Of a DNA stretch of 64,000 nt, positions 2,016 through 30,549 are shown piece by piece. Each line of letters starts with the position of its first letter. Within the stretch, counting starts at the first letter, position 1. The notes beneath the pieces were generated by a model. That model saw only the letters and a program-made list of their open reading frames with translations, made no database searches and was not told where the DNA came from. Source of the stretch: an uncultured virus (IMG/VR IMGVR_UViG_3300009161_006655) (Duplodnaviria; Heunggongvirae; Uroviricota; Caudoviricetes); IMG/VR virus record IMGVR_UViG_3300009161_006655. The stretch is one strand, 5' to 3'. The translations under genes were made by a program, and so were the position numbers.

Positions 2016-2870
2016 ACGCTGAGATTACACGTTCATTTGACAGGTCTTTGGTTAGATTATGATTTCCCAAACTTATCCACCACCTTTTGAGTGATATCCT
2101 ATCAGTACCGGTTAGTTAGACTAACCACTTCTTGAGTTACTAAATACTCTCCATTTAATCCACTTACTCAGCCTTGCGAGCTAACACGAGGTTCGATCCT
2201 CTATAAGTTTTTCGATGAAATCACATCAGCCTTTCGAGCTTCAGTGGCCAAGAACAACTCTTGACTAAGTAGGTACCTTTCATCAGTAACTAGGTAACAC
2301 TTTCGATTTGTTTTTAGTTTTTGAATCTACTTTCAAATTTTAGTGCTTGTAGATTTATGTCGAAGTAGTGGTCACCTCTCAGCTCCCAAAGCTTTTGGCC
2401 TCAAGAATACTGGACTACTCCGTGTGATGCCTCCATCACAACTTTTTAAGATATCTTCACCACGACTCGCCTTGCGACTAATCTACACTCTTGGTAGAGT
2501 GATTGATGTTCATTAACAGCACCGCCTGTACAATGAATTGTCTTTCGACTTTGAGACACCTATCAAGTTGAAACTCACGATTGTAATAACTGGTTGGTCA
2601 CCACTTCTCGTAAAATCTCTACAGGTTATTCTTATTGGTCTTCCGACCTCAACTGAACAATCTACACTTGCCCAGTCACCAATCCATTTCCCTACGGAGT
2701 TACCCTCGGTACTTCAGGCTTAGTGATATCCTGCTTGCTTACTCGACCTCGGTTACCCAAGACGCAAACACATTTTGCAATTGTGTTCACTTTATCCCTC
2801 TTTCAAGGTTTATTTTACGACCATAAGCGGCCGTTACTTCCATCTATCCTAAGATAGGTTTCCGTATGTA
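2016..2870 (-). ncRNA. large structured ncRNA, GOLLD-like (ends approximate)
   Basis: About 850 nt, GC-enriched, no credible ORF; many minus-strand GNRA hairpins (gtc-GAAA-gac, ggtc-GGAA-gacc, cttgg-GTAA-ccgag, gtc-GCAA-ggc); downstream of co-oriented tRNAs. Confidence 0.65.
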
Positions 2871-3106: not shown

Positions 3107-3121
3107 ATATATCTTTTTTTG

Positions 3122-3222
3122 TAGCCCGTAGAGGATTCGAACACTCTGTTTTCTAACCGAAAAGTTAGACGTCCTAAACAGATAAATCTGTTTCTCTTGC
3201 GAGTCCAGTAGACGAACGGGCC
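3122..3222 (-). tRNA. atypical Glu-type tRNA: 8-nt anticodon loop (CTTTTCGG), ~28-nt D-loop insertion
   Basis: Acceptor GGCCCGT/ACGGGCT, D stem GTCT/GGAC, anticodon stem TCTAA/TTAGA, TTCGAAT T-loop with a bulged T-stem. Confidence 0.7.
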
Positions 3223-3227
3223 ATTTG

Positions 3228-3300
3228 TAGTTGGTAGAGGATTCGAACCTCTGTTTGATTTCTGAAAAGAAACCCGTCCTATCCAGTAGACGAACCGACC
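3228..3300 (-). tRNA. atypical Glu-type tRNA with 8-nt anticodon loop (CTTTTCAG)
   Basis: GGTCGGT..GTCT-ACTGGATA-GGAC G GGTTT-CTTTTCAG-AAATC AAAC AGAGG-TTCGAAT-CCTCT ACCAACT A. Confidence 0.75.
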
Positions 3301-9413: not shown

Positions 9414-10178
9414 TTATTCTTTCCAAAAATTTACAGTTCTTAAATCTCCATTACCTAAAAAAAGTACAAAACTTTTAAAACCCAATCTATTCATTCTACT
9501 AATAAAGTTATCTTGGAAATCATCAAAGTGTTCATTTAGTTTATGAAACTCACAAGATAAACATCTAAGTGATTGTAAATTCTCATCTGTGATTGATGTT
9601 AAGACATCAACTTCACCACCTTCAATATCCATTTTCATAAAGTCAATTTTATCCGATACTTTACCAAATAATTCATTAATACCGACCATATAAGCTTTTT
9701 CTTGATGAATAACAGGTCTACTATTAACAGCCTCATCTTTAGATGAGCCACCACCAATATGTGTATAATCTGTGTGTATCATGAAGTCTATCCATTTATT
9801 TTGAGCACCAACTGCCATTTTATAAACTAAAGTTTTAGGACCTCTGTTTTTAATTAAACAGTTAAAAGTTGGAGTTAAAGGTTCAAATGATATAACTTTA
9901 GAAGCTCCTCTAAATTCAGCTCTGTGTGCGAATATACCAATGTTGCCACCGATATCCAATACAACATCACCTTCTTTAATAAAACAACCATATCTTTCAT
10001 AATCACAACCATTGTCATCATAAACAAAGTTTGTAAACATTTCATGCCACATGTAATTGTTACCATCAAAGTCACCAGAATAATACCTATCCATAGTGAA
10101 ACTTTCATTTTCTTTTGCTAAGTCTCTAAGAACTTCATTGCCTTCTTTGTCTAAAGTCCATATTTTTTTATTTCCCAT
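9414..10178 (-). CDS. FkbM family methyltransferase
   Basis: VLDIGGNIG, SFEP, MKMDIEGGE. Confidence 0.9.
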   Translation of the reverse strand: MGNKKIWTLDKEGNEVLRDLAKENESFTMDRYYSGDFDGNNYMWHEMFTNFVYDDNGCDYERYGCFIKEGDVVLDIGGNIGIFAHRAEFRGASKVISFEPLTPTFNCLIKNRGPKTLVYKMAVGAQNKWIDFMIHTDYTHIGGGSSKDEAVNSRPVIHQEKAYMVGINELFGKVSDKIDFMKMDIEGGEVDVLTSITDENLQSLRCLSCEFHKLNEHFDDFQDNFISRMNRLGFKSFVLFLGNGDLRTVNFWKE

Positions 10179-29104: not shown

Positions 29105-29794
29105 TTATTTTTTAATTTTCTTTTTTAATTCTTTACATAAGTGTGGATGAACCCACTTTTCATTTTGAATATTTACTTCTTCTACCAAGTTTTCAACTAT
29201 TAAGTTATTAAATAATTGGTATCTATCATGGTAATTCATTCCAGACGTTTGGTCTTTTATTGATCTGACATTACCATCTTCCATTTGAATAAATAAAGTT
29301 CCCTTTTTGTATTTGAATGTGTTTTTTGTTCTTTCATAAAATATCTCACAATCTTCTTTTACTTTCCAAGCTTTAATCTCATATATCTTTGGATTTTTAT
29401 TTGGTGTGGATGATAATAACTGGTCAATTTTATAATCTCTATATTCCGGTTCAGTCATTTTATAAATAGGCACAATTCTCCACTCATATCCATCATGAAA
29501 ACTTGGATATATTTTAGTAGCAGCATCTAAAGCAGACGATCTACTTGTGTAGATGCGATGATTCCAATATGTTGTCCAACTGTAAAACTCACCTTTTGAA
29601 TCTTTCCATCTAACTTCAAGTGACCAGCCGTATAGATGAACATCATCAGCGACTGCTTGAATTTTAATTAGTTGACTATCAGCGATAGCATACACTTTGT
29701 TATTGATTGTGTAAGTCATTACATCACTTTTAAAGTGATTTTTAATTGGTTCTACTATTGTAGATTTCTTTTTGAATAAATTAAATAGTTTCAT
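29105..29794 (-). CDS. hypothetical protein with internal RDYKIDQLL motif
   Basis: ORF track. Confidence 0.65.
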   Translation of the reverse strand: MKLFNLFKKKSTIVEPIKNHFKSDVMTYTINNKVYAIADSQLIKIQAVADDVHLYGWSLEVRWKDSKGEFYSWTTYWNHRIYTSRSSALDAATKIYPSFHDGYEWRIVPIYKMTEPEYRDYKIDQLLSSTPNKNPKIYEIKAWKVKEDCEIFYERTKNTFKYKKGTLFIQMEDGNVRSIKDQTSGMNYHDRYQLFNNLIVENLVEEVNIQNEKWVHPHLCKELKKKIKK

Positions 29795-30140
29795 TTTCTT
29801 TAGTTTTATTTTTTAGAGCCAATGGTAAGTGAGAAAGGCTTTTACGGATTTTAGGTGTACCATATAAGCATACAGAGGTAAACTGATTTACATCAGGTTC
29901 AAAAAAAATAACTGATTCAGTTAAGTCTTTATACTTATGGTAAAGTTTTTGGAGTTCAAATTCATTTTTAACTGATAGACAGATGATAGAATTTGATTCA
30001 GATTTCCATTTAGAAAATGTTTCTGAAAATTCAAAAGCGAAGTCAGCAATTGAATGTGTTGATTGTACTACTTGGTACCCATTTGAGATATCACTTCTTG
30101 TGATAATAATTAATTTTGTTTCGTTAATCTAGTTGTTCAT
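29781..30140 (-). CDS. peptidyl-tRNA hydrolase (Pth2 family) with in-frame TAG at codon 4
   Basis: MNN*INETKLIIITRSDISNGYQVVQSTHSIADF...W...SIICLSVKNEFEL...FFEPDVNQFTSVCL...LSHLPLAL; 120 codons; A-rich leader before the ATG; absent from the ORF track. Confidence 0.8.
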
Positions 30141-30162
30141 AATTGTTTTTGTTTTTTGTTTT

Positions 30163-30238
30163 AAAATAAAAATACCCCCATTATAGTTTTCTAACCGAGT
30201 GCTTATTAGCTGGTCGGTCAGATTCCTATTATGGAGGT
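30163..30238 (-). terminator. long leader hairpin with U-rich tail (attenuator-like)
   Basis: ACCTCCAT-A-ATAG/CTAT-A-ATGGGGGT, TCTGACCGA/TCGGTTAGA, GCT-AATA-AGC, then ATTTTTATTTT. Confidence 0.6.
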
Positions 30239-30273
30239 CTCTCAAAAAATTTATATGTGTTAATCTACATCAT
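30229..30273 (-). promoter_or_regulatory. leader uORF MM*INTYKFFERPP* with in-frame TAG
   Basis: ATG ATG TAG ATT AAC ... AGA CCT CCA TAA; the last codons form the 5' arm of the hairpin. Confidence 0.6.
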
Positions 30274-30330
30274 TGTCTTGAATTATTATATTATAAATAT
30301 ATATCAAAAGTTTTACTTCTCCCTAAATAT

Positions 30331-30549
30331 TTAAATTAAATTTATTATTAAACTACCAGGATTGAAATACATTTCATTTACAACAAATCCATAGTCTTTA
30401 CAATTTTCAATAACTATTTCTTTCATTCTCGAACTAATACCAGTTATCACCTCTACTTGGTGTTTATCATTTCGCATCATTTCCCAAAAGAAAACATCAA
30501 GTTTTCTAGGAACATCTTCGTGTTTAATACCATGTAAGTCTAGTTTCAT
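30331..30549 (-). CDS. stand-alone Smr/MutS2-C domain protein
   Basis: LDLHG...VITG...NPG. Confidence 0.8.
   Translation of the reverse strand: MKLDLHGIKHEDVPRKLDVFFWEMMRNDKHQVEVITGISSRMKEIVIENCKDYGFVVNEMYFNPGSLIINLI

Follow-up and report, generated by a model that had tools for sequence, protein, structure and literature searches.

Why should a phage carry an amber stop codon a few codons inside a gene, and a second one, in the same context, inside a short reading frame just upstream of it? The question is raised by a locus in IMG/VR record IMGVR_UViG_3300009161_006655, an uncultured virus of the Caudoviricetes, from which a stretch of 64,000 nt was analysed (hereafter the window; AT-rich, with about 30% G+C, a GOLLD RNA and tRNA genes). 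All features of the locus lie on the minus strand. An open reading frame (ORF) for a Pth2-like protein (29781..30140; 119 residues plus stop when the amber codon is counted as a residue; TAA at 29783-29781) begins ATG (30140-30138) AAC AAC, meets TAG as its fourth codon (30129..30131) and continues with ATT AAC (30128-30123). No ATG, GTG or TTG opens an in-frame ORF of at least 30 amino acids behind that TAG, the first such codon coming 102 codons on. Some 130 nt upstream of the ORF start, a 15-codon upstream ORF (uORF; 30229..30273), which would encode MM*INTYKFFERPP, reads ATG ATG TAG ATT AAC ACA TAT AAA TTT TTT GAG AGA CCT CCA TAA. Its two start codons occupy 30273-30271 and 30270-30268, its amber codon is the third (30265..30267), again followed by ATT AAC (30264-30259), and its terminal Pro-Pro-stop (CCT CCA TAA, 30229..30237) falls inside the 5' arm of a long, terminator-like hairpin (30174..30238) that precedes a U-run (TTTTTATTTT, 30163..30172).

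We argue that the two amber codons belong to a two-level switch, in which amber suppression would gate translation of the Pth2-like gene and a suppression-sensing attenuator would gate its transcription. We think that this account is probably, though by no means certainly, correct. The original prediction, made from the letters of the window, had described both frames with their matching TAG contexts and the hairpin with the end of the uORF in its 5' arm and a U-rich tail behind it; the coordinates of both frames all fit, and the hairpin is confirmed as a stable predicted fold (minimum free energy -31.3 kcal/mol). Comparison across relatives adds that both TAGs, the ATGs in frame with them, the frame of the uORF and the hairpin are conserved, that the standard code is otherwise in use and that tRNA genes with a CUA anticodon occur in relatives. 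From this pattern we infer that suppression would be the signal, that the hairpin would terminate transcription, and what the gating may be for.

The amber start across the gene family

Homologous starts were drawn from phage and metagenome contigs, giving 132 loci (the window, L001-L010 and L075-L195; tblastn match in 131) and 102 distinct start contexts. The relatives concerned comprise uncultured phages with sizes of 462-735 kb and IMG/VR contigs as well as pT24, a phage of Tenacibaculum that is in culture; the closest large relative of the window, G001, is 90% identical to it in the Pth2-like protein. The phages with gated Pth2-like genes are large and belong to Bacteroidota-type, AT-rich communities of fresh and marine waters. 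The nearest upstream in-frame stop is TAG in 96 of the 102 distinct starts, and every TAG-bearing row of the start-context table has an in-frame ATG one to six codons 5' of it. The other six comprise a gene fragment (L186) and five distant homologues with ordinary ATG starts (26-38% identity; L188, L189, L191, L192 and L193/L194). The amber start is real and more than chance. Going by the sequence comparisons, the whole family of Pth2-like genes shares the amber gating; the leader occurs in a single subclade only.

A sceptic might hold that the TAG is a nonsense mutation or an assembly error in a dead gene, or that TAG is a sense codon throughout (genetic code 15). Database gene callers do give glutamine (Q) at the gated TAG, code-11 calls from one source beginning 3' of it, and the Lak phages, distant relatives, are reported as TAG-recoded (PMC8346664). 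However, the 96 distinct contexts come from independent assemblies, and the window stretch is present in 17 DNA runs on freshwater or lake metagenomes from 16 studies (in RNA runs, 0.05-0.08 of sampled words were present, which is no evidence either way). That two matching stops argue against a random nonsense mutation had been part of the original prediction, and the conservation of the early TAG bears the argument out.

As for a changed code, we counted ORFs bounded by TAA or TGA, of at least 150 codons, that a TAG cuts into two pieces of at least 60 codons each. Such split ORFs number 2 of 51 in the window, both judged off-frame or antisense by inspection, 11 of 566 in LR745206, 3 of 199 in pT24 and 8 of 315 in G001. 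TAG also ends its share of long ATG-initiated ORFs: 3 of 41 in the window, 32 of 458 in LR745206, 15 of 172 in pT24, 28 of 276 in G001 and 90 of 488 in LR756502. Global recoding was accordingly dropped as a candidate, TAG ending 7-18% of long ORFs in the five sequences. The long ORFs of the window are free of internal TAG, and every other gene there starts ordinarily after any TAG upstream of it. The window and the four related phage genomes thus otherwise use TAG as an ordinary stop, and we give the dead-gene and code-15 readings a probability close to nil.

The context of the gated codon is tightly constrained on one side only. No specific codon is kept before the TAG, and the codon after it is ATT in 82 of the 96 contexts, GTA in seven, GTT and ATA in two each, and ATC, AAC or ACA in one each, so that the next base is always a purine (A in 87, G in 9). 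The prevalence of ATT might suggest that the TAG-ended ORFs of two to seven codons are start-stop minigenes, with re-initiation at the adjacent ATT. This scenario draws on those 82 contexts, on five more A-initial codons by a loose count, and on translation table 11, which allows ATT as a rare start. It sits badly with the 11-12 of 96 distinct starts in which GTA, GTT, ACA or AAC follows the TAG and no ATG, GTG or TTG intervenes before E7 and K9, invariant residues of the protein. Because these four codons are not start codons and E7 and K9 come a few codons past the TAG, translation must begin at the upstream ATG and pass the TAG. These starts thus contradict the possibility, which the original prediction had set against itself, that translation begins at the ATT regardless of readthrough. 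Moreover, in the copy from a 735-kb phage (L004), the conserved domain itself contains another in-frame TAG, which ATT again follows, and re-initiation leaves the linkage to CUA tRNA genes (below) unexplained. We consider it very improbable.

Two other routes past the TAG were considered and rejected: ribosome hopping between matched codons (as in AAC TAG ATT AAC), since most loci lack matching take-off and landing codons, and decoding of UAGA as a quadruplet, which leaves the ORF frame so that the protein cannot be made in that way.

What, then, is the gated protein? Its match to the Pfam PTH2 family (PF01981) scores 22.6 bits, just below the cut-off of 23, against 32 bits for the pT24 orthologue; NCBIfam Pth2 models give 23-24 bits, far under their cut-offs of 82-126. 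A profile of the family matches solved Pth2 chains at E values of 5.3e-5 and 3.8e-4. An AlphaFold2 model (predicted local distance difference test 71.1, predicted template modelling score 0.66) was compared with known structures by Foldseek, and the matches listed at ranks 1-13 are without exception archaeal Pth2 or human Bit1 (template modelling scores 0.46-0.56), only one of these listed Pth2/Bit1 matches reaching an E value of 0.001 or below. On the predicted structure, the protein thus has a Pth2 fold. K9, D83 and T88 are invariant in an alignment of 21 sequences, as is E7; the first three resemble what we take to be the Lys, Asp and Thr of archaeal Pth2. By the model and the profiles, the window protein is a divergent Pth2-fold protein with putative hydrolase activity. 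Automated annotation can miss it altogether: the deposited pT24 annotation (L006, 1582-2400) begins at an internal ATG and misses the Pth2-like domain behind the TAG.

The Pth2-like gene is not alone in this arrangement, although neither a second gated gene nor the standard code of the rest of the genome had figured in the original prediction. G001 and LR745206 carry, about 1 kb downstream of it, a 192-codon HD-domain gene (Pfam HD 20.8 bits, cut-off 22; phrog_14850) that begins ATG TTG TAG ATT in the former and ATG AAT ACT TAG ATT in the latter, and in pT24 and L166 the HD domain is fused to the Pth2-like domain. HD homologues were located at 34 loci, the N-terminus not being covered in one, and their starts are amber-gated in 25 of 25 distinct cases; within the window there is no HD homologue. 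Taken at the level of sequence, the amber start characterizes two linked gene families of large phages that use the standard code.

Within the window, a pattern of ATG, zero to four codons and TAG ATT followed by a long ORF occurs at the Pth2-like locus only. The idea that ATG x TAG ATT is a general gene-start signal was set aside, as the window, pT24, LR745206 and G001 yielded few candidates other than the Pth2-like and HD genes, and those few were unconvincing. At one locus (L005, about 1846-1860 of LR756500), the gene after the Pth2-like gene also begins ATG AAA TAG ATT.

The leader upstream of the gene

Upstream of the gene, a uORF of the form M(M)*I.TY...PP-stop, followed by hairpin and U-run, recurs in 32 distinct forms, which come from homologues of at least 72% identity plus L002, L111 and L181. 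In the window, LR745206, G001 and LR756502, the homologous locus is the sole occurrence of the pattern ATG..TAG..Pro-Pro-stop. The uORF is 15 codons long in 21 leaders, 16 in nine and 17 in two, so that indels leave the frame intact. In the alignment of the 32 leaders, the T, A and G of the uORF amber are invariant columns, CCTCC of the Pro-Pro-stop is present in 32 of 32, and the columns of the U-run are nearly invariant.

The hairpin is conserved along with the frame. Its z score in the window is -7.1 (against 100 mononucleotide shuffles), and z is -3 or lower in 30 of the 32 leaders, the other two having been mis-cut by the T-run rule. CCTCC has its pairing partner, GGRGG, at the stem's 3' base. 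Four of the nine consensus pairs of the outer stem have changed on both sides (A-U in 13 leaders versus U-A in 10, for example), and the inner stems fold in each lineage despite having unrelated sequences. The element looks like an intrinsic terminator, with a CCUCC/GGGGG stem base and UUUUUAUUUU from 2 nt past the stem. A scan at Rfam gathering thresholds found no family at the leader.

If the leader controls the gene, transcription should start upstream of the uORF and nowhere between the hairpin and the gene. A promoter-like box, TATATTTA, lies at 30294..30301 and departs by one base from TAnnTTTG, which we take to be the Bacteroidota -7 consensus; the same TTTA variant is found in L075. 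The exact motif stands 17-35 nt upstream of the uORF ATG in 25 of the 32 leaders (background 0.066 per 70 nt), and it also precedes CUA tRNA genes of relatives. Between U-run and gene, the aligned leaders hold no promoter box, the window having an A-rich spacer free of such a box (30141..30162), and no minus-strand sigma-70-type site was called in the window stretch. The gene would therefore need read-through of the hairpin. The next gene (29105..29794; 229 amino acids, no family) starts with an ATG that overlaps the end of the Pth2-like ORF by 14 nt, an overlap also present in L001, and is consequently probably co-transcribed behind the leader. Altogether, a conserved uORF overlaps a predicted terminator between promoter and gene, the layout of a leader-peptide attenuator.

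By eye, the inner stem of the leader shares 13 bases with an odd tRNA-like sequence elsewhere in the window; this resemblance was judged to be chance, as the relatives lack it.

CUA tRNAs and the proposed switch

What might the switch sense? The original prediction had listed shortage or inhibition of release factor 1 (RF1) and a suppressor tRNA as triggers. The suppressor tRNA is the one for which there is evidence: a search for CUA tRNAs came up empty in the 64-kb window and found a CUA tRNA or tRNA-like gene in 15 of 20 related phage records (five canonical, ten atypical), in ten of these 15 within about 3.5 kb of the gated gene. A phage-encoded tRNA(CUA) is, on this distribution, the likely trigger.

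Canonical genes are found in pT24 (2.5 kb upstream of the gated gene; called by ARAGORN, Rfam tRNA 65 bits), G001 (370132-370204; Rfam tRNA 59.5 bits), LR756501 (two in tandem, 2.1 kb from the gene), and G006 and G011 (one each). The atypical genes are of two types. The first, with a 9-nt anticodon loop, CCUCUAAAA, forms a cloverleaf 0.2-3.5 kb from the gene in G004, G005, G008, G009 and G010, and G007 has a pattern match to it. The cloverleaf appears at relaxed ARAGORN settings only; its consensus fold has 22 pairs, five of them changed on both sides among three distinct sequences. The second type, G+C-rich and with an 8-9-nt loop of the form (A/C)UUCUAAC(C), occurs in LR745206 (L036, 7340-7421), LR756502 (L256, about 9680-9760), LR756504 (L289, near 281,000, minus strand) and G013 (L274). 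In G013, the tRNA-like gene and the gated gene share a strand, with the former about 50 nt upstream. Where the LR745206 and LR756502 copies differ in the acceptor stem and in a D-stem of 6 bp, the changes are, by inspection, compensatory; RNAalifold, run on the four genes with UUCUAAC, gave a poor alignment and no usable structure. ARAGORN reads the LR756504 copy as having a four-base anticodon, UCUA, complementary to UAGA. Together with the invariant purine after the gated TAG, these odd tRNAs with their 8-9-nt loops may reflect a dedicated mode of recognition.

A single amino-acid assignment for the suppressors was dropped, since they resemble different isoacceptors (Glu-like, Lys-like or none), and this variety fits a site at which the identity of the inserted residue is of no consequence.

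Several of these phages have Pth2-like genes close to tRNA clusters. At L218 in G017, about 0.45 kb from L193, a distant Pth2 homologue with an ordinary ATG start also stands beside a tRNA cluster, one that includes a canonical tRNA(CUA).

Putting the pieces together, we envisage the following. At the level of translation, a ribosome starting at the ATG at 30140 would meet UAG at codon 4; lacking a suppressor it would release a tripeptide, and with the phage tRNA(CUA) it would read through and make the enzyme. The transcriptional level would be confined to the subclade that includes the window, whose uORF, with UAG at codon 3, is promoter-proximal. A ribosome terminating at the uORF TAG would leave 27 nt between its A site and the stem, so that hairpin and U-run could form and the transcript would end. 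A ribosome that reads through would instead arrive at the Pro-Pro-TAA at the 5' base of the stem and keep the stem open; termination after Pro-Pro is slow. With the stem open, RNA polymerase would go on to transcribe the Pth2-like gene together with the next gene, which overlaps it; during translation, the TAG of the Pth2-like gene would then put readthrough to the test a second time. Both the Pth2-like and the HD protein, a putative pair for tRNA recycling or tRNA repair, would be made in proportion to suppressor activity, and could clear by-products of readthrough or feed back on the suppressor tRNA. In the strongest version of the latter, both enzymes would act on the phage's own amber suppressor, for instance stripping it of an aminoacyl or peptidyl group or trimming its 3' end, and so close a feedback loop that sets the strength of UAG readthrough, a proposal that we regard as doubtful at present.

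Each comparative check bearing on the readthrough-gated attenuator of the original prediction has gone its way, in that the uORF keeps its early TAG and its Pro-Pro-stop in 32 distinct leaders across indels, the gene keeps its TAG, and the outer stem of the hairpin covaries while the inner stems differ between lineages. Several observations nevertheless weigh against the two-level switch. The TAG-ATT context is not avoided at real stops (26 of 168 TAG versus 123 of 1088 TAA); with TAG ending 7-18% of long ORFs, suppression would extend other proteins. At default thresholds, neither ARAGORN nor Rfam picks up the odd tRNA-like genes, which makes their suppressor role putative only. No CUA tRNA lies in the window itself, and searches with anticodon-to-T-loop patterns found none in LR756500, G012 (rated 100% complete), G002, G003 and G014. 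The promoter box of the window is a base off consensus. A simple terminator scan called no site at the hairpin, an outcome attributable to the internal loops and long span of the stem. Finally, one lineage (L009, L010, L157 and L158) has CTCC-TTAA out of frame, its uORF continuing into the hairpin.

Some of these points would be accommodated if translation were amber-gated and the hairpin were something other than a suppression-sensing attenuator: the end of a small RNA, an element for processing or stability, or a constitutive partial terminator, with the uORF-like start a duplicate of the gene's own 5' end. The leader does begin as if copied from the start of the gene, with a promoter box followed by ATG x TAG ATT AAY, and in homologues without a leader the promoter box lies directly 5' of ATG-x-TAG. 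The lineage without an in-frame Pro-Pro-stop and the silence of the terminator scanner are expected here as well. Against such a role, the frame from TAG to Pro-Pro-stop is kept across indels in 32 of 32 leaders selected by regular expression, and 31 of 32 MM*I-type leaders taken without that selection end in Pro-Pro-stop; CCTCC is invariant, and there is no promoter box from U-run to gene. We therefore think it unlikely, if worth taking seriously, that the hairpin has such another role.

Alternatively, the signal might be the host's capacity for UAG termination, be it RF1 level or inhibition or near-cognate readthrough, rather than a suppressor tRNA of the phage. The window and the five of 20 related records in which no CUA tRNA was found would fit such a signal. 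CUA genes in the other 15 records, which in ten cases lie no more than about 3.5 kb from the gated gene, do not, as their linkage would be left unexplained, and we hold a host signal to be improbable. The two-level switch driven by a phage tRNA(CUA) remains the reading that we pursue below.

Known systems and neighbouring features

Leader peptides control transcription attenuation in the trp and his operons and in pyrBI. The phage locus shares with these a promoter-proximal short ORF before an intrinsic terminator, here a predicted one, the position of the leader ribosome deciding whether the terminator would form; what blocks the hairpin would be the ribosome itself, as it is in pyrBI. It departs from all three in what would be sensed, namely readthrough of a stop at codon 3 instead of charged-tRNA or nucleotide supply; no alternative antiterminator hairpin is seen and the leader ends with Pro-Pro-stop inside the stem. 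An early in-frame stop is also known from prfB, the gene for release factor 2, which is autoregulated through an early in-frame UGA and a +1 frameshift and so senses its own product. The phage amber starts resemble prfB in using an early in-frame stop as a sensor of its own decoding, and differ in that the frame is kept. A functional tie between mini-ORFs and peptidyl-tRNA hydrolase exists in phage lambda, whose bar minigenes are toxic to Pth-deficient hosts. Here, too, ORFs of two to three codons end in a stop, whereas the mini-ORF would be the abortive state of the hydrolase gene itself and no fixed codon precedes the TAG.

Among phages, a close parallel is the reassignment of TAG to glutamine (code 15) in Lak and crAss-like phages, which has been proposed to time translation of late genes, and the same source notes standard-code relatives with suppressor tRNAs (bioRxiv 10.1101/2021.08.26.457843). 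As in the code-15 phages described there, a phage-borne suppressor tRNA and in-frame TAGs would make chosen genes depend on a change in decoding. In contrast to them, the standard code is kept with TAG as a stop, two gene families only are affected, and each has one positionally conserved TAG at codon 3-8 in a gene that is tRNA-related and not structural or lytic. Neither "hydrolase" nor "attenuat" occurs in the accessible text of that report. PTH2 genes, the same protein family, have been described in jumbo phages, likewise large, and proposed to rescue ribosomes after tRNA damage (PMC7824862); the part of that article available to us mentions no in-frame amber or leader, contains no "suppressor" and has its sole "amber" in the title of a reference. 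The accessible part of the pT24 genome note reports four tRNAs and nothing on codons. In the literature searched, to the extent that its main texts were accessible, we found no description of an amber-gated Pth2 gene or of a suppression-sensing attenuator.

Stop-codon recoding in phages has so far been viewed as a genome-wide change of code, and this locus points to a minimal form of it: a standard code, a CUA tRNA and one amber at the start of two tRNA-related genes, kept across deep divergence. If our interpretation is true, the leader would be the first leader-peptide attenuator to sense stop-codon suppression, and the arrangement could be an early step on the way to recoding or a stable alternative to it. 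It would also explain why standard gene callers cut these genes short or miss them. Should the feedback loop be true as well, it would amount to a natural, self-contained circuit for partial code change.

Three further features of the window deserve a brief mention. Directly 5' of the leader lies a gene for 72 amino acids (30331-30549, minus strand) with a weak Smr-domain match (23.1 bits, cut-off 25.7). It was considered as a part of the module and rejected, being adjacent in the closest relatives only and about 245 kb from the Pth2-like gene in LR745206. The GOLLD RNA (2016-2422, minus strand; Rfam RF02032, 268.9 bits, cut-off 150) adjoins tRNA genes. An odd tRNA called by ARAGORN at 3227-3300 (minus strand; Rfam tRNA 38.1 bits) has a two-base anticodon, "tt", in a 6-nt loop, a type also called in LR756502 and G011, and a further tRNA-like sequence, whose D region carries an insert, can be made out by eye at about 3110-3222 (minus strand).

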